Source: a virus
Taxonomy: Duplodnaviria > Heunggongvirae > Uroviricota > Caudoviricetes
Reading direction: 5' to 3' (one strand)
Virus record (IMG/VR): IMGVR_UViG_3300022205_000001
Span: 128,001 to 168,076 of that record
Length of the DNA stretch: 40,076 nucleotides
The position numbers and the translations under genes were made by a program. This document shows positions 9,329 to 35,312 of this stretch, piece after piece. The notes under the pieces were generated by a model. It saw only the letters and a program-made list of their open reading frames with translations. It was not told where the DNA came from and did not search any database. Every line of letters begins with the position of its first letter. Within the stretch, counting starts at the first letter, position 1.

Positions 9329-10252
9329 CTATTCGTCGTCTGCCAGGTTCTTGAAGAAACTCAAGTCTTCATCCTCTTCGTCGGCAACTTGACCGACTGG
9401 AGCCGGATTTGCCGCTTTGGGGGCGAATGACTGAGGAGGTGTGTCCTCATGTTCTTGTTCCGGCTCAAGTGGGGTAGATTCTGCGGTTGACGATTGCACC
9501 GCCGTTCCCAACACCTTTACACGGCGAGCTTCTAGTTGAGCATAACTCTTGAAGTTCTTTGGTTCAACAAATTCCTTCAAGGCATGTTCCTGCTTCCAAA
9601 TTGCTTCCAATTTTGCATCATCGTCTGCAACCGGAGACTGAACATCGAAACCAGACTTGTCATAGTTTCGATACCCTTCTACCTTACGGATCTTGAGGGA
9701 GAAATTTGCACCTTCCCACAAGTCAAAAGGACTGAATACCTTTTCGTCAGGAAATTCTGGGTGCATCTTTTCATAGATCTTGTCAAAAATCTTCTTCCCA
9801 AACTTGAAGAGTCTGACCGTACCATTGTTTGCCGGTGCCGCAGGATCATTGACCACCAAGATATTTGCTGTGTACGACAACTTGCGCTTCCGTTCACTAA
9901 CGATTTTCTTGTTGGATTCAATGCCCGTATTCCAGAGAATATTGTTCCCCTCACACACCGGACATTTCTGTTCGATGGTCGTCGGGCAGTTATCAATAAA
10001 CCATCCGCCCGGTCCCTGGAATCCATGTGTAAACTGACGAACCCATGGCAATCCATCTTCCCCATCTTGGGGTGGGGCTGGAAGAAAACGAATGATGGCA
10101 TACCCGTTTCCCGACTTATCGACGGTGGGTTCCCAAAATCGCGTATCTTCTTTCTTTCCGTTGGAAGATGCTGCTTTGATCGCCGCTTCTAGTTTTTCAA
10201 CTGAACCGCGGGAACGTTTGAGGGCAGAAAAACTGACTGGTGTGTTTGACAT
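9329..10252 (-). CDS. Single-stranded DNA-binding protein gp32
   Basis: DTRFWEP..GNGYAIIRFLP, NCPTT..CPVC, GANFSLK, NYDKS, acidic tail; GGAGG SD before ATG 10252. Confidence 0.96.
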   Translation of the reverse strand: MSNTPVSFSALKRSRGSVEKLEAAIKAASSNGKKEDTRFWEPTVDKSGNGYAIIRFLPAPPQDGEDGLPWVRQFTHGFQGPGGWFIDNCPTTIEQKCPVCEGNNILWNTGIESNKKIVSERKRKLSYTANILVVNDPAAPANNGTVRLFKFGKKIFDKIYEKMHPEFPDEKVFSPFDLWEGANFSLKIRKVEGYRNYDKSGFDVQSPVADDDAKLEAIWKQEHALKEFVEPKNFKSYAQLEARRVKVLGTAVQSSTAESTPLEPEQEHEDTPPQSFAPKAANPAPVGQVADEEDEDLSFFKNLADDE

Positions 10253-22129: not shown

Positions 22130-23326
22130 TTATCCTTTCACGCATAACACCTGCCTCAACACGGCAACAACTTTGACCAGATCCTTCTGATCTTCCATCA
22201 CGGCATCAATGTCCTTGTATGCCGCAGGGATTTCATCCACCACACCTGCATCCTTACGACAGACAATTCCCGCGGTCTGCTTCTCAACATCCTCCGCGGT
22301 ATACAGTTCCTTTGCCTTTCCTCGTGACAACTGGCGTCCGGCACCATGCGAACAAGAGCAAAACGAATCAGAGTTTCCTAATCCCTGCACAATGTAGGAC
22401 CGGGTCCCCATTGAACCAGGAATGATCCCCATATCGCCCACGCGAGCCCGTACCGCACCCTTACGAGTGACAATCACGTTCTCCCCGAAATGGTTCTCCC
22501 GTTCCGCATAGTTATGGTGACAGTTTATCATGACTTCTGGGTCAATGATACCATACTTATCACCAAAGATTACTTCTGCAATCGCCTGAAGCGTCAACTT
22601 CATCATGATCTCACGGTTCTTCATGGCGTAGGACTGTGCCCACTGCAAATCGCGCCAGTACGCATCAAACAGAGGAGTACCCTCCGGCAGATACGCCAAG
22701 TCTGGGTTTTCCAGCTTGATCATGAATTGCTGCATCAACTCCTTGGCACAGTCAATGTAATAGTTCCCGATCTTGTTTCCAATTCCACGAGAACCTGAAT
22801 GCAGCATGACCCATACGTTGTTCTTTTCGTCTAAGCACACTTCGATGAAGTGGTTTCCACCACCGAGCGTACCTAACTGAGCCAGAGTCTTATCAAGCAA
22901 ACCCTTCGTAACAACTTCTGGAAGTTTGCAGTACCCAGGCATCATACCATTCCAAACAACCGCATCGTCGGTTGCCGTCTTATGCTGCCCCTGCCCAACA
23001 GGAATTGCCTTTGACAAGGCAGAAAACAAGGCATCCAATGAATCCGGTAAACGATCTGCTGAGAACGGCATCTGAGCCGCCATCATTCCGCACCCAATAT
23101 CCACACCAACCGCAGCCGGAACCAACGCACCCTTCGTCGCCACTACAGACCCAACGGTTGCACCCTTTCCATAGTGAACATCCGGCATAGCCGCTACATG
23201 CTTGAAGATGAATGGTAACGCAGCCGTCTGGCGCAATTGCACCTCAGACTGTAGATCTACATTCTTCGTCCAAATCTTGACCGGAACCGTTTGCTTCTCG
23301 CCCGTCAATACCTTTGAAATTCCCAT
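22130..23326 (-). CDS. rtcB: RtcB RNA ligase
   Basis: MPDVHYGKG, GVDIGCG, GTLGGGNHF, HSGSRG, HHNY, HGAGR, DEIPAAYK. Confidence 0.97.
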   Translation of the reverse strand: MGISKVLTGEKQTVPVKIWTKNVDLQSEVQLRQTAALPFIFKHVAAMPDVHYGKGATVGSVVATKGALVPAAVGVDIGCGMMAAQMPFSADRLPDSLDALFSALSKAIPVGQGQHKTATDDAVVWNGMMPGYCKLPEVVTKGLLDKTLAQLGTLGGGNHFIEVCLDEKNNVWVMLHSGSRGIGNKIGNYYIDCAKELMQQFMIKLENPDLAYLPEGTPLFDAYWRDLQWAQSYAMKNREIMMKLTLQAIAEVIFGDKYGIIDPEVMINCHHNYAERENHFGENVIVTRKGAVRARVGDMGIIPGSMGTRSYIVQGLGNSDSFCSCSHGAGRQLSRGKAKELYTAEDVEKQTAGIVCRKDAGVVDEIPAAYKDIDAVMEDQKDLVKVVAVLRQVLCVKG

Positions 23327-25700: not shown

Positions 25701-26645
25701 TTATCCCCTTCCGTAACGATGAACAGAAATCAGCAACTCCAACAACAACTGGTCCGCGGCTTCAGTGTCCACCTTCTCAGGAAGTGTAGACTTCGCCGAC
25801 AAGCCTTCCAGTTCATCCATCAAGTTCTCCAACACCGGAGACACCTCCTTGAAATGCAGTGAACCAGACTTCACCGCCTTCAAAAATTCAGTCTCCTTCA
25901 ACGGGTAGGTGAAATCACCCTCAGTGAGGATAGCTTTCACCTGAAAACCTGCACGAAACGCATGAGAGATAGCTTTCCAATCCACCCCCTGGTTCGTTTC
26001 CGCCTGCTTCGCCCGTTCGCCAAACTCCCTGATAAAATTCTCCAACATTGGAACATAGTGGTCGGTCGTCGCCGTCAAGGTCAACTTCTTTCCACATACA
26101 CCGTAGAATGCACGTCCTTCCGCCTCTTGCTGACCACAATGTTCGGTCGTCGGAAATGCCCATAGCACTTCCCCCACCTTCTTTTTCGGGAAAGTCTTAA
26201 GAACATCCAACACTACCCGGGCATCCGCCAAACGGCTACCCTTGATCCCATACTTCGCCGCTTGGGTTCTCGCATAGCCCACAAAAGACGAGAGTGTTCT
26301 AGTATGGAACATATGCCGCTTAGAATGCAGCAATTCCCACTCATTCGCCGCCGTGAGCCAGGCAGACTTGGGGGCATGAAGCATGTCAAGAGCCACCGTT
26401 TCCCCCTTCTTTGCTAATTCAAAGAAGTATTGCAGAGAATACAGTTCCTTGTCCACGTCTTCAGCCGTGTTTTTCTCGTTTGAATTTTGTTTTGTATTGA
26501 AAGACAAACTCTTGGGAACCTTCCCCAAAAACATATCTCTCATACTGGGCGCAAACACTCCCTTGAAATCCATGTCGGACGTAGGGGAGTTTAGCCCGTA
26601 GAGGTGTGAGCCGAACTTCATTTCTACAATCGTTGTTCTCATCAT
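25701..26645 (-). CDS. Pol-beta superfamily nucleotidyltransferase (T4 NrdC.11 / RlaP-like)
   Basis: FGSHLYGLNSPTSDMDFKG, GYARTQAAKYGIKG, DWKAISHA. Confidence 0.88.
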   Translation of the reverse strand: MMRTTIVEMKFGSHLYGLNSPTSDMDFKGVFAPSMRDMFLGKVPKSLSFNTKQNSNEKNTAEDVDKELYSLQYFFELAKKGETVALDMLHAPKSAWLTAANEWELLHSKRHMFHTRTLSSFVGYARTQAAKYGIKGSRLADARVVLDVLKTFPKKKVGEVLWAFPTTEHCGQQEAEGRAFYGVCGKKLTLTATTDHYVPMLENFIREFGERAKQAETNQGVDWKAISHAFRAGFQVKAILTEGDFTYPLKETEFLKAVKSGSLHFKEVSPVLENLMDELEGLSAKSTLPEKVDTEAADQLLLELLISVHRYGRG

Positions 26646-27551: not shown

Positions 27552-27755
27552 TCAATCCTTCATCATCGGTTTGAACCACATCAATGCTTCGGTACATTCC
27601 TCAAACATATCTGAGGTAATCTCACCTTGCAATAACTGAATATGAAACACATTCATCAAGAATGACCACTTCTGCCAAGCAAGATCGTCACGAATTTCTT
27701 CATCCGTAAAATCCCCAGGCCCTCGCAGTTGACGCTTGATTTCAGTAAGTCTCAT
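27552..27755 (-). CDS. Hypothetical protein
   Basis: GGAG SD, 67 aa. Confidence 0.6.
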   Translation of the reverse strand: MRLTEIKRQLRGPGDFTDEEIRDDLAWQKWSFLMNVFHIQLLQGEITSDMFEECTEALMWFKPMMKD

Positions 27756-27765
27756 ACATAAACTC

Positions 27766-27842
27766 CGGTGACTCGCAAAGGGGTATCGATCCCCGACCTC
27801 TCAGTCCCATACTTTGAGTGTGCTCTCCTGCACTTGCGAATC
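27766..27842 (-). ncRNA. Aberrant tRNA-like RNA (11-nt anticodon loop containing GGG; ends ACCG)
   Basis: GATTCGCA/TGCGAGTC acceptor, GTGC/GCAC D stem, GGGG-ATCGATA-CCCC T arm. Confidence 0.65.
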
Positions 27843-27845
27843 AAT

Positions 27846-27922
27846 TGGTGCCCCCAACAGGATTTGAACCTGTGTTGTTCCGCTTAGAAGGCGGATGCCT
27901 CTCCAGACTAGACTATAGGGGC
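27846..27922 (-). tRNA. tRNA-Arg(UCU)
   Basis: Loop CTTCTAA, CCA. Confidence 0.92.
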
Positions 27923-27923
27923 A

Positions 27924-28007
27924 TTATCCTGTCACTGCAAAATACATGATTATGATTGCTACAATGAACAAAAACCCATATACCCAAACTTCCAAATAGT
28001 CAATCAT
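27924..28007 (-). CDS. 27-aa single-TM peptide
   Basis: AAGGA SD; MIDYLEVWVYGFLFIVAIIIMYFAVTG. Confidence 0.5.
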   Translation of the reverse strand: MIDYLEVWVYGFLFIVAIIIMYFAVTG

Positions 28008-28019
28008 AATATTCCTTTA

Positions 28020-28112
28020 TGGAGGAGAGAGGTGGACTTGCACCACTGCCGACAATATGTCGGCCGATCCGTTTTCGAGACGGCCCCAGTTCGCTTGCCT
28101 GGTTCACTCTCC
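28020..28112 (-). tRNA. tRNA-Ser(CGA)
   Basis: Loop CTCGAAA, long V arm, CCA. Confidence 0.88.
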
Positions 28113-28184
28113 ATTAGACGGATTCAATGAATAAAATATCACAATCAACATAAACAATGCCACAAGAAATATTCCGGTACCCAT
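28104..28184 (-). CDS. 26-aa single-TM peptide; stop inside tRNA-Ser(CGA)
   Basis: AAGGAG SD; MGTGIFLVALFMLIVIFYSLNPSNGE. Confidence 0.5.
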   Translation of the reverse strand: MGTGIFLVALFMLIVIFYSLNPSNGE

Positions 28185-28196
28185 GATTCTCCTTTT

Positions 28197-28507
28197 TGGT
28201 GGAGGTGCGGGGCATTGCAGCCCCGGTCCAAAGAAACATTTGAAATAGGAACTCCATGCTACTCAATCTGAATACGCACTAAGCTGACGGATTGAGACCT
28301 CAGCTTACGGAAGGAACCACCCTGACCAGCCTGTTATTACGCTGTTTCCATACACAGGCATCTATGGAACAACGAGCAACACTTAAGCTGCCAACGCGAA
28401 TTCAGATTCGACGTTTAGTTTTTGCTAATGAGATTAACGTGAGCACCAGCACTCACGGCATGACCTAGATTTCTCTTGTTTTCTCTGTCGAACTCCTTAT
28501 CACCCCC
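28197..28507 (-). ncRNA. ssrA: tmRNA, tag (A)VESEFALAA*
   Basis: GGGGGTG...TTCGAC 5' end, CACCTCCACCA 3' end with G3.U70, tag frame 28412-28383 ending ALAA-TAA. Confidence 0.93.
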
Positions 28508-29024
28508 GTATTTGATGTGTTCTACCCACTTCTTCTATCAATGAATATCCTTTATGACTTCGTTTTCTCTCCACTACGCCTTTATGAAATGAATTGTAGT
28601 TGAGCCCATTCTGAACACAAAATGTAGTCAAACATGGAACTTCTACAACCTCTCCACTTGGTGTTTTGAGCCGATAAGTTTTAGCGTATAGGTTATCCAC
28701 TCCATTTTTCCATACACAACTTGGATTGGGATTCCTATTTGGGTTACCGCATCCCCAACTTGATCTTGTTCCTTTTGGAAATCTTATTCCTGTTACAGAA
28801 CCACCCTTTTTCGATCCAGCCATTATTGCCGCTTGCAAACACTCATCGCTACTTTTTATTCCACTCAACCCTTGCCATGCGACATAATCCTGCCAATTCC
28901 CATGTTGTTCCCACAACTTCTTATGAGCAAGAGCATGTTCTTCGGGAGACAACTCCACTAAATTAGCAGGGGCATCTGTTCCACCAGCATATTTTGGAAT
29001 AATGTGATGTTTATGTTTTACCAT
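28500..29024 (-). CDS. HNH homing endonuclease
   Basis: HKHHIIPKYAGGTDAPANLVELSPEEHALAH; NUMOD-type C-terminus. Confidence 0.9.
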   Translation of the reverse strand: MVKHKHHIIPKYAGGTDAPANLVELSPEEHALAHKKLWEQHGNWQDYVAWQGLSGIKSSDECLQAAIMAGSKKGGSVTGIRFPKGTRSSWGCGNPNRNPNPSCVWKNGVDNLYAKTYRLKTPSGEVVEVPCLTTFCVQNGLNYNSFHKGVVERKRSHKGYSLIEEVGRTHQIRG

Positions 29025-29263
29025 GAATCGTAATCTGTTACATCTAACTCAGTCAATGTCACCGTGTCTTCAATCTTTACCACAACCCCAATTGACGTTG
29101 GAGTGATATGATACGTGAATGCTCCACCAATCGCTCCCGTCCTCGCAAGACCATTGTTCTCTAAGCGTTGAATAATCTTGGTTTGCTTCTTGATAAAACG
29201 ATCAACCTGTTTAGATTGTTTGGTGGTCAATATAATCAACGGCGCATTTTCTTTCATCATCAT
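29018..29263 (-). CDS. Hypothetical protein (GAIGGAFTY..TPTSIG..DYDSW family)
   Basis: Start moved to MMMKEN, outside the tRNA. Confidence 0.7.
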   Translation of the reverse strand: MMMKENAPLIILTTKQSKQVDRFIKKQTKIIQRLENNGLARTGAIGGAFTYHITPTSIGVVVKIEDTVTLTELDVTDYDSW

Positions 29264-29267
29264 CCTA

Positions 29268-29363
29268 TGGCGGAAGAGGGAGGTCTTGATCCCCAATGCC
29301 AGGAATTAGCTGGCATCCCATCGCCTTCCAAGCGAGTCTGGCGTCCTCACCAGTTCCTCTTCC
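29268..29363 (-). tRNA. tRNA-Ser(GGA)
   Basis: Loop TTGGAAG, long V arm, CCA. Confidence 0.88.
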
Positions 29364-29370
29364 AGTTCTA

Positions 29371-29463
29371 TGGCGGAGAGCGGAGGGCTTGCACCCCAAC
29401 GGGTTTTTACGCCGTCAATCCGCTTTCAAGGCGGTTCCGGTACGCTTGTCCGGTTCACTCTCC
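29371..29463 (-). tRNA. tRNA-Ser(UGA)
   Basis: Loop CTTGAAA, long V arm, CCA. Confidence 0.88.
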
Positions 29464-29939
29464 ATATTTTTCATGAAATCAAAATCTTGTATTTCTTCGT
29501 TTGTCCATTCATCATGGTGGAGGTCATAAGACTTAAGAGGTTCCACCAGGTTGAGCTTCTTCATCTTTCGTGCAGTCCGCCACACTTTCCAAGTCTCAAG
29601 AATAAACTGACACTTCCGCTTCACTCCATATCGTATCCAATATTTTATCGCATGATAAAATCTACTACAAAAATCCCGTAAAATACGGTTCCATAACATC
29701 CATTTTGGTAGTGAAGGAATATCAACGAATTCTGGATGCTTGATAGACCCAATTAACAACCATGTGTTATCACTCTGCTGTATCAGCAAACAATGACCAT
29801 CAAGGGCATACTTCTTCGCTTTCCATTTCGTAATCAACCTATGAGACAATAATTCTTCGGTAGTATTGAATTCAAATTCCTTCCGTAACGAGGGCAAATC
29901 TATAAAATATGGCATATACACATAGAATTTATTTCTCAT
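29415..29939 (-). CDS. Hypothetical protein; last 16 codons read into tRNA-Ser(UGA)
   Basis: GGAG SD before MRNKFY. Confidence 0.6.
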   Translation of the reverse strand: MRNKFYVYMPYFIDLPSLRKEFEFNTTEELLSHRLITKWKAKKYALDGHCLLIQQSDNTWLLIGSIKHPEFVDIPSLPKWMLWNRILRDFCSRFYHAIKYWIRYGVKRKCQFILETWKVWRTARKMKKLNLVEPLKSYDLHHDEWTNEEIQDFDFMKNMESEPDKRTGTALKAD

Positions 29940-30735: not shown

Positions 30736-30743
30736 ATATTGTA

Positions 30744-31071
30744 GTAGGAAGAACCATAGCCGGGGTTCTGTTCTATTCCATCATTTCTCTAGGAATATCA
30801 TTACTGATACCCTCAAGCCACCTACCCGTCAACATCATGAGAGCGTCACTTGTTCGTTGACCTATTTGGTGTTGCACCACGTAGAGATTGTTCGTATCAC
30901 CTCCCCATACTCTGAGCCTGATATGAGCAGTCTCGTATTATGAGTATGGTTCCTCGTCTCTTTAACTCTAATCCTCAGGTTACCCTGGGTGGCCGTTAGC
31001 CACTACGCTGCTCTTGGTGCCCCGAACTTCCTCTAGTGCATCAGTCACTAGCGATGGATCGTTCTTCCTAC
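30744..31071 (-). ncRNA. rnpB: RNase P RNA (type A-like)
   Basis: P1 GTAGGAAGAAC/GTTCTTCCTAC; GAGGAAGTTCGGG, GCAA..CCAAATAGG, CGGGTAGG..GCTTGAG, AGAGAAATGA, ACAGAACCCCGGCTAT blocks in order. Confidence 0.9.
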
Positions 31072-31529: not shown

Positions 31530-31853
31530 TTAGTTTTCAATAACAGTATGCTTTTTCAGTTCAATATAAAACGATCTCTCAAGTCTAAACACTTTTCCTG
31601 CTGGTGCTGTCATTGGTTGCACAGAACATAATTCTTTAGCGATCACTGCCGGGTACGCTGTTCGCACGATATCAATAATACGATTCCGATTTTCCTGAGT
31701 ATTCGGTTTTCCAATAAACTGAGATAAACTATCTGCCAGGTATTCTGGTGCTGGTTCTGGTGCTGGTGCCTGGTCACTAAGAACTTTTACAGGGTTCAGT
31801 ATGACCGCGCCAACTGTGCCGATCAACACTTTCAGAAATGTTCGTCTATTCAT
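31530..31853 (-). CDS. Tat-signal protein carrying a gp23 (major capsid) Gol-region-like segment
   Basis: MNRRTFLK + hydrophobic core; IVRTAYPAVIAKELCSVQPMTAPAGKVF; GAGG SD. Confidence 0.7.
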   Translation of the reverse strand: MNRRTFLKVLIGTVGAVILNPVKVLSDQAPAPEPAPEYLADSLSQFIGKPNTQENRNRIIDIVRTAYPAVIAKELCSVQPMTAPAGKVFRLERSFYIELKKHTVIEN

Positions 31854-31870
31854 ACATGCCTCATAATAAT

Positions 31871-31944
31871 TGGAGCGACCACCGGATTCTGCCACCGGGA
31901 CTACGGGTTGGAAGCCCATCGTTTTGCTTCTAAACTATGGTCGC
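31871..31944 (-). tRNA. tRNA-Gly(UCC)
   Basis: Loop CTTCCAA, U73, CCA. Confidence 0.85.
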
Positions 31945-34112: not shown

Positions 34113-34196
34113 TGGTGGATAGCCAGAGAGTCGAACTCTGCGAGAATTAACGACGGTGTTACAGACCGCCCCGCCTCCGTAACGGTTTAGCTACCC
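34113..34196 (-). tRNA. tRNA-Tyr(GUA)
   Basis: Loop CTGTAAC, extended V region, CCA. Confidence 0.88.
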
Positions 34197-34209: not shown

Positions 34210-35045
34210 TGGTGGGGTCTCTTATAGAGCGATCACAACCCCCTCTCGCTTTAGCTGAAACTTTTAGAGCGTCAGTCAGCCATCTTCGCTATCAGGTGCC
34301 TAGGTCCTCAGTTATTCCCCGGCAGGGAGGACTCCACGATAATTGCCGGGCCAGATGTTCCCATGTCTGCACCTGTTGGGGAACCCACGAATCGATCCGG
34401 TCCTCTTGGGAGCGGAAAATCTAGGGGTCAGTGATTTTAGTGGTCCCACCCCCAAGCCCCACCCTGCACTCCGTTCTCCGTCGCAAGGACCATGAACTTG
34501 CACAGGTCAGAGAATCTTAAGCTTCTCCGATAGGAAACCTTTGTTATGGCAGTGTTTCGTCTGCCTTAGTGCAGTCTTCCCTTTTACAAGAATGGAATCA
34601 ACCCAGTGGTCAGCTTCCCTGCACATTCTATTTCTTTGAGTGCGAAAGGTGAACTAGAGGTTCCTCGTTCAGCTTCCTGAAAGATTAGCCAACCTTGCTG
34701 GCATCTCTTTCCTTCAGCACCGGACCGTATTTCTTCCCTCGGTGCCTGTGTCGCTTTGGGCGCGGTTATCACTCTATAGTGGCCGCAGCAAGTTACCCGC
34801 CGTTCTTGTCGCATTGGGGCGCTTGCCTCACCCCGCCGATTTTATTGTAGGATCGCCCGTGCTGCGCGGGTTCTGATCAGTGTTTTCCCCATGAATCGTA
34901 TACTATTCATGGGCACTATTGGGTGCTACCCCAATTACATCCTACAATATTTACTCAAACTCTTTTGTCTATCAAGCGACAGATTCGCCTCTAGGCGCTT
35001 TATTGATCCGATTGGGATCGCTTATTCTGTCGCTCATTCATCATA
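34210..35045 (-). ncRNA. Large (~830 nt) highly structured RNA, family unassigned
   Basis: No credible ORF, GC-rich, many helices and a pseudoknot, own promoter. Confidence 0.7.
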
Positions 35046-35050
35046 TTAAG

Positions 35051-35079
35051 AGTATAACAGACTCATTCTATCCTGTCAA
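35051..35079 (-). promoter_or_regulatory. Sigma70 promoter TTGACA-17-TATACT with A-tract UP region, driving the large RNA
   Basis: -10 at 35051-56, -35 at 35074-79, IHF-like box at 35121-33. Confidence 0.88.
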
Positions 35080-35223: not shown

Positions 35224-35312
35224 TGGTACACCCGTATGGAATCGAACCATATCAAGCCGGTAATCTGCCGGGAAGGACTTATAAGGTCCTCTTGCCTCCA
35301 AGGCGCGGGTGC
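35224..35312 (-). tRNA. tRNA-Ile(UAU) with long V arm and minimal D arm
   Basis: Loop CTTATAA; V arm CCGG-CAGATTA-CCGG; GGTTCGA; CCA. Confidence 0.8.

Follow-up and report, generated by a model that had tools for sequence, protein, structure and literature searches.

A probable cassette of small non-coding RNAs, each with its own fold, within a phage tRNA operon

What does a phage encode in an 836-nt gene-free stretch of its tRNA array that carries its own promoter: one ornate RNA of ∼830 nt, as a preliminary description of the locus proposed, or several RNAs in tandem, the alternative that it also raised? The stretch lies at positions 34210-35045 of the window, the 40,076 nt of DNA analyzed here, which is the final 40 kb of a complete phage record of 168,076 bases with direct terminal repeats. 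The phage encodes a T4-type tail sheath (gp18) and gp32, and ARAGORN identifies 27 tRNA/tmRNA genes. The gene-free region is bordered by tRNA-Ile(TAT) (35224-35312) and by tRNA-Tyr(GTA) (34113-34196), the first tRNA after it and probably part of the same transcript; both genes are on the minus strand, as are all features of the region described below. The tRNA-Ile(TAT) gene, 89 nt long with a short D-arm and a long variable arm, is conserved clade-wide; its identity is doubtful, and the Rfam tRNA model gives it no score. Elsewhere on the minus strand of the window are a phage RNase P RNA (30741-31070; Rfam RF00010, 191 bits), a tmRNA (28197-28507), and an RtcB RNA ligase (22130-23326; Pfam PF01139, E = 6e-129), and an RlaP-family nucleotidyltransferase is found at 25701-26645. 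Related loci encode tmRNA in four cases and RNase P RNA in six.

The near-consensus promoter first noticed at 35051-35079 is present. It is of the sigma-70 type with an extended -10, has an 11/12 match, and would start transcription near 35044. Its -10/start segment is a portable unit of 23-28 nt that also occurs at two other promoters of the genome, and a promoter occupies the equivalent site after tRNA-Ile(TAT) in six relatives: L166, L281, L282, L294, L295, and L297 (L-numbers denote fetched loci, G000 denotes coordinates on the whole phage genome, and G001 and G006 are complete relatives). No convincing terminator separates the region from tRNA-Tyr or follows any module, so the precursor would continue into the downstream tRNAs. 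The absence of a credible ORF also holds: four ORFs of 63-76 aa overlap the region, and in a comparison with the proteins of this phage only, none shows any resemblance except for an antisense sheath fragment. As a whole, the 836-nt region folds with z = -3.2 (against 20 shuffles) and contains 79 perfect 6-bp helices versus 54.6 ± 7.0 in shuffles. The excess holds for helices of 6-7 bp, and those of at least 8 bp are not clearly in excess, so helices picked singly by eye are weak evidence.

Comparison with syntenic relatives is more informative. Relatives were gathered by means of two neighbor genes, for a metallophosphoesterase and an HNH protein, and are 170-kb T4-like phages with the common tRNA order Leu(TAG), Ile(TAT), Tyr, Asp, Cys. 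A tail-sheath search for close relatives gave a best identity of 72%, useless for synteny, and a plasmid search gave no match. The Ile-Tyr interval is empty in two relatives (L165, with 40 nt, and L280, with 15 nt) and spans 150 nt in L211 with a 99-nt core as its sole module. In the six relatives with an equivalent promoter, it comprises that promoter and a further 0.7-1.4 kb made up of different structured elements. Six module types of the window have separate homologs, and the longest match of any sequence to the region is ∼115 nt. Module 3 precedes the core in the window and follows it in L282, which carries two cores, and module 4 is located after tRNA-Thr in L211. Modules are gained, lost, duplicated, and reordered among related phages. 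With homologous parts found singly, reordered, and at most ∼115 nt long, the region is a mosaic rather than a conserved 830-nt molecule. The single giant RNA fails at this point, as syntenic relatives shuffle, lose, or replace its parts, and the alternative of tandem RNAs matches what relatives display: an empty interval, the core alone, or other module sets.

The homologs of modules 1, 3, 4, 5, and 7 number one to five each and all come from one phage clade. About 300 nt (module 2 plus ∼190 nt of hairpins) lack any homolog and could form a larger domain. No close relative was found to carry this same cassette, so tertiary contacts between modules may exist in this one phage.

The related intervals contain further elements. 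A small element that begins with UUAAGUC, continues with a variable stem, and finishes in GCAGA was not found in the window's cassette but recurs in the Ile-Tyr intervals of L166 (8325-8360), L282, L284, L285, L294, and L281, with up to three per cassette between other modules. A conserved module of ∼45 nt, absent from the window, is found in the intervals of L166 (8510-8555), L282, L284, and L297, often just ahead of the core or module 3, and a 90-nt element near the cassette end is common to L166 and L282. Upstream of the HNH gene, L279, L280, L285, L294, and L296 carry nicotinamide phosphoribosyltransferase, NUDIX/nucleotidyltransferase, and PRPP-synthetase-like genes beside the tRNA array, gene sets resembling, by analogy, NAD-rebuilding counter-defence pathways. 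Tet/JBP and base-modification genes are present in L296.

The first element of the predicted transcript is module 1, a 60-nt three-way junction (34975-35034) that folds locally (z = -5.4), in agreement with the domain originally drawn from 34975-83/35026-34. Its one homolog (L295 8921-8978) also lies right after a promoter and has the same fold, with compensatory changes in two helices. The second proposed domain, closed by 34844-53/34939-48 around three internal hairpins, likewise folds locally (z = -4.7); this 105-nt multi-stem element (module 2, 34844-34948) is a prediction only, with no homologs among the fetched loci. By eye, a hairpin-loop palindrome of 6 nt and a single-stranded palindrome of 8 nt are visible in module 2 at 34899-34906 and 34884-34891; they could permit dimer formation.

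Module 3 is a two-hairpin element of ∼88 nt (34753-34840) with homologs in L281, L282, and L297. A 5-bp loop-loop pseudoknot joins 34826-34822 with 34792-34788. Across the four sequences 100% of cells are paired, and all 5 pseudoknot pairs change on both sides; the loop-loop helix differs in sequence in each of the four copies, with complementarity always kept. Between modules 3 and 4 are three hairpins (34629-34752, including 34717-45) that are a prediction only (z = -2.1) and have no homologs among the fetched loci. Module 4 (34534-34628; homologs in L211, L294, and L295) opens with a short stem whose interior is variable; an H-type pseudoknot comes next (34565-61/34552-48 and 34558-54/34538-34). 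Its four sequences are 97% paired, with double changes at 3 pairs. A long-range helix proposed between 34464-70 and 34568-74 is not supported here, as in the homologs 34569-74 pairs with an immediately upstream strand and the distal partner is missing. For module 4, pattern scans, one of them of metagenomes, gave chance matches in coding DNA, except for L211; scans of viral contigs gave no match to module 3 and, for module 5, only the contig of L211. Hairpins at 34466-34533 follow module 4 (z = -0.6), again without homologs among the fetched loci.

The remaining small modules flank the core. Module 5a (34424-34463), identified by descriptor search, is a 40-nt H-type pseudoknot of the module 7 type with no CCA end, and the same type lies at the equivalent position ahead of module 5 in L281, L294, and L295. 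Module 5 (34391-34420) is a 30-nt bulged hairpin of strongly conserved sequence, with copies in four loci (L281, L294, two in L295, and L211), each followed by a different element. Module 7 (34210-34250), 14 nt before tRNA-Tyr, is an H-type pseudoknot ending in ACCA plus an AU-rich spacer; its homologs are L294 11448-11483, 11899-11934, and 8298-8330, and L295 9303-9336. Most copies of the 5a/7 type end in a CCA-like tail, which suggests that CCA marks the end of a small module. The 3' CCA that had been noted for the region is real, but terminates a 40-nt pseudoknot module and not an 830-nt molecule. The proposed helix 34211-20/34455-63 is not supported either, as its two strands come from separate local pseudoknots that each recur in homologs. 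A pseudoknot-plus-CCA descriptor gave 7 matches versus 0-4 in shuffles and is supportive only in combination with sequence similarity.

The most informative element is module 6, the 99-nt core (34292-34390), for which covariation supports a pseudo-symmetric double pseudoknot of four helices: 34384-79/34362-57, 34375-69/34299-93, 34350-44/34324-18, and 34332-27/34309-04. An H-type pseudoknot recognized earlier at ∼34304-34350 is genuine, but it is only half of this fold, namely helices three and four. The core is built of two similar halves, each with an N-CGUGG start (N at 34390 and 34339), a hairpin, and a loop that pairs with the 3' tail of the other half. A pattern derived from the 3' half finds the core in 75 viral-contig stretches and in 12 genome-bin contigs, labeled as Bacillota, Proteobacteria, Gemmatimonadales, Phycisphaerales, Patescibacteria, and an archaeon. 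BLAST places it in Arthrobacter, Mycobacterium, and Microcystis phages. This genome has one copy. In a set of 64 distinct copies, the columns that covary most strongly are those of the predicted base pairs, and these columns lie outside the search pattern, which itself forces about half of the invariance in the 3' half. In 30 aligned copies the four helices are 94% paired, compared with 36-48% in slid controls; 20 of the 25 pairs change on both sides, and double-change cells number 157 versus 39 in shuffles. To judge from these alignments, the core is an uncatalogued RNA of many unrelated phages whose fold is kept across the phages of many hosts. A homolog search with covariation had been named as a check on the region; it yields homologs for six module types and a strongly covarying core.

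The connection between the two halves varies among copies. A hammerhead core, recognized by pattern, lies between them in 48 of 64 copies, with its GUC/GUA/GUU triplet ending exactly before the second N; these hammerheads would be expected to cleave, given their canonical core. The other 16 copies, including that of the window, mostly have a linker of few bases, and a hammerhead (CUGANGA plus GAAA core, three stems, NUH site) is absent from the window's copy. In L075 (near 9850-9960, plus strand) the core is circularly permuted, with the second half first and directly after tRNA-Leu. Hammerhead linkers, short linkers, and this swap together indicate that the link between the halves is dispensable. 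The first half alone is found in L297 (10112-10170, plus strand), where its loop could form a simple pseudoknot by pairing with the tail of the same half.

Several observations concern the 5' ends of the halves. A -10-like box lies 6-7 nt ahead of the first N in 13 of 75 copies, versus ∼2 per offset. A tRNA 3' end abuts about six distinct copies, though not that of the window or most others; elsewhere the core is a stand-alone element, with a same-strand tRNA within 1 kb in 29 of 64 copies and within 40 nt in 18. These features, along with the hammerhead before the second N, suggest that free 5' ends are frequently the starting points of both halves; no obvious free end is seen for the window's copy. 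The core is most likely a rigid, two-fold pseudo-symmetric fold in which both halves start in this way. Moreover, the two N bases are identical in 57 of 64 copies, with or without a hammerhead, and they change jointly on a rough tree (20, 19, and 20 joint changes); on well-supported branches the coupling comes down to 4 pairs (p = 0.125). Neighbor-gene clustering found no common gene near the core copies and no consistent downstream gene or distance, and the lack of a shared neighbor argues against a riboswitch.

None of these modules corresponds to a known family in the sources searched. In Rfam searches that covered the window as well as 30 loci and used both gathering and E-value thresholds, tRNA, tmRNA, and RNase P were the only families among the matches listed, and the core has no match, including to any ribozyme model, in Rfam searches of 20 loci. 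The catalogues and literature searched, a set outside the candidate lists of PMC10690425, hold no entry or paper for the modules, and the invariant 12-mer of the core occurs in no paper of that literature. The motifs in the available part of PMC10085705 were considered as possible cores and differ from it; the available part of a 2026 preprint on prokaryotic non-coding elements holds nothing matching the modules.

Taken together, these results make it probable that the region is a polycistronic cassette, inserted in the phage tRNA operon and made up of small non-coding RNAs that fold independently of one another. Host RNA polymerase would make one precursor from the host-type promoter, running through tRNA-Tyr and beyond. 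Processing of the tRNA type, with RNase P and with host nucleases that cut at AU-rich spacers and CCA ends, would then free separate stable RNAs; the phage RNase P RNA is a candidate processing enzyme. The closest known kind is found in T4, whose RNAC and RNAD are small RNAs from the phage tRNA region with no assigned role (PMC3014915, PMC9697503). Both sets are non-coding and encoded among the tRNA genes of a T4-like phage, but the present locus has a promoter of its own and strings together six or more module types in shuffled order, and its modules are mostly pseudoknots. As to a sequence relation with the T4 RNAs, a phage-collection search gave no T4-like enterobacterial phage.

The function of the freed RNAs can be addressed only by analogy. 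A tentative proposal, plausible without being favored, is that they act in trans as accessory ligands or decoys that engage host proteins during infection, such as defence nucleases, toxins, or tRNA-handling factors. This role would explain a patchy, fast-turnover distribution like that of accessory genes. Type III antitoxins are H-type pseudoknots of 35-45 nt with A-rich loops, and modules 4, 5a, and 7 appear to be similar pseudoknots. The pseudo-ToxI of phage PhiTE, also a phage array of short RNAs, offers a precedent for an RNA decoy (PMC3475682). In contrast to pseudo-ToxI, the modules are not repeats of one unit and have no known toxin partner. Tandem near-identical repeats like those of a known antitoxin, as in a type III antitoxin mimic, are absent, with no Rfam match and no internal direct repeats in a self-comparison.

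A second strategy that the phage might use is catalysis, the main rival reading, though an unlikely one. Instead of acting in trans, the modules would be small ribozymes, either selfish or with a part in processing, that cleave or ligate the tRNA precursor and spread through a homing-endonuclease-rich tRNA array, with the core as a new ribozyme class. RtcB joins the end types produced by hammerhead-like cleavage, and the phage encodes RtcB as well as several HNH or NUMOD3 endonucleases. The core combines two pseudoknots with many almost invariant unpaired bases, it abuts tRNA 3' ends in some of its copies, and its two N bases agree and change jointly, as if one site reads both. However, about half of the 3'-half invariance is imposed by the search pattern, the well-supported N-N coupling is limited to the 4 pairs above, and a symmetric same-base contact on a two-fold axis accounts for N identity without catalysis. 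A hammerhead would moreover be redundant were the core itself to cut there. Theta ribozymes, which lie in tRNA trailers and are proposed to act on tRNA precursors (PMC10879173), other HDV-like ribozymes, and type I phage hammerheads share with the core the property of being small pseudoknotted RNAs, which can lie beside phage tRNA 3' ends, as about six copies of the core do, and most relatives of the core carry a hammerhead, as an optional linker that the window's copy lacks. Unlike theta and HDV-like ribozymes, the core consists of two interlocked hairpin-pseudoknot halves without P3, L3, P4, or the J4/2 cytosine. A nested double pseudoknot of that kind (P1, P2, and P3, with J4/2 beginning in a catalytic C) was rejected for the core because its four helices come in a different order.

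Module 4 raises a separate question. Its variable interior, occupied in homologs by a short GNRA-capped hairpin, here holds a 39-nt exact antisense copy (34583-34621) of the phage's own tail-sheath gene. The match is 39/39 to G000 92289-92327 (E = 4e-14), within the sheath gene at G000 91900-93795 (minus strand, Pfam Phage_sheath), and the insert is antisense to codons 490-503. It is the sole inverted repeat of at least 22 nt in the genome. The peptide is conserved among sheath proteins, so copying must have run from gene to RNA. No further convincing antisense fragment to this genome was found in this cassette and nine related ones, and self-match searches of the tRNA arrays of G001 and G006 against their own genomes gave no comparable capture. 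One 28-nt match (82%, E = 0.44), which falls in the gene at G000 27716-29497, was taken as chance. A CRISPR mini-array was also considered for the insert and rejected, as direct repeats do not flank it and the flanks are the module 4 stem.

The likelier account of the insert is a recent, neutral, one-off capture into an insert-tolerant loop. Pairing with the late sheath mRNA could nonetheless occur: the predicted duplex has -84.6 kcal/mol versus -25.5 and -23.9 for the separate folds. It is possible, though unlikely, that module 4 with its insert has been selected as an antisense regulator, which would delay or tune sheath expression through an RNase III-sized duplex with the late mRNA. The antisense orientation, the far greater stability of the duplex, and the placement in a loop of the conserved scaffold, downstream of a host-type promoter, are consistent with regulation, as is full identity to the phage's own allele at sites where other phages' sheath genes show 11-22% divergence. 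Recent neutral capture, however, equally predicts perfect identity. Furthermore, the case is single, with three homologous scaffolds lacking an insert and the G001 and G006 arrays lacking a comparable match; the target site is deep within the coding sequence; and the insert is predicted to be able to fold on itself. An assembly artefact is improbable, since both flanks of the insert continue the module 4 scaffold. Elsewhere in the tRNA array, a 129-aa ORF (31530-31919, minus strand) has a 37-residue stretch that matches major capsid Gp23 (E = 6.5e-08) and is possibly another captured structural-gene fragment.

A joint reading of the core and module 4 is quite unlikely. It holds both that the core is a new natural ribozyme or ligand-binding class that needs two free 5' ends and that module 4 is a scaffold loadable with a captured antisense guide, which here would be directed at the phage's own sheath mRNA. 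The two ends would, with the same low likelihood, come from a transcription start or tRNA processing and from an embedded hammerhead.

The giant-RNA reading, in which a GOLLD- or ROOL-like ornate RNA folds and perhaps oligomerizes as an 830-nt unit, is highly improbable. It draws on the length, the promoter, the tRNA-array position, and the overall folding z value, and GOLLD is likewise found near tRNA islands (bioRxiv 10.1101/2024.12.08.627333), a location that this region shares. GOLLD (RF02032) and ROOL (RF03087) are also phage-borne and of similar total length, but the region has no conserved domain of several hundred bases, and its parts are independent and reordered. The absence of a match to either family by eye is borne out by a cmscan-type Rfam check, with nothing at the gathering score or E ≤ 10. 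The model of the conserved GOLLD 3' domain (RF02032) has no match at E ≤ 10 in the genome or the region, and RF03087 has no match in a dedicated search that ran without a working positive control. GOLLD membership defined by a continuous RNA with a fixed domain order was rejected as well, with modules absent, duplicated, and reordered in syntenic relatives. The shuffled modules, the ∼115-nt limit on matches, and the two contradicted long-range helices add to this; what stands of the original proposal is a non-coding, structured, promoter-driven RNA that is not GOLLD or ROOL by Rfam models.

Least likely of all is control of the downstream tRNAs in cis by a riboswitch-like or attenuating leader: the region does lie between a promoter and a tRNA run and the core is aptamer-like in size and conservation, but no module is followed by a terminator or expression platform, the core keeps no consistent downstream gene or distance, and relatives express the same tRNAs with the interval empty.

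Within the literature searched, then, the region is real, modular, and uncatalogued. Small RNAs of phage tRNA regions have been known since T4 without an assigned function, and to them this locus adds several families that are uncatalogued and have defined folds. With a length of ∼100 nt, the core is widespread and strongly covarying, and occurs naturally in one-piece, hammerhead-split, and permuted forms; these properties make a direct test of its catalysis or ligand binding cheap. The locus also advises caution, as long gene-free gaps in phage tRNA arrays may resemble GOLLD-sized RNAs yet be mosaics. Finally, the antisense capture illustrates that a one-step origin is possible for a phage regulatory RNA.
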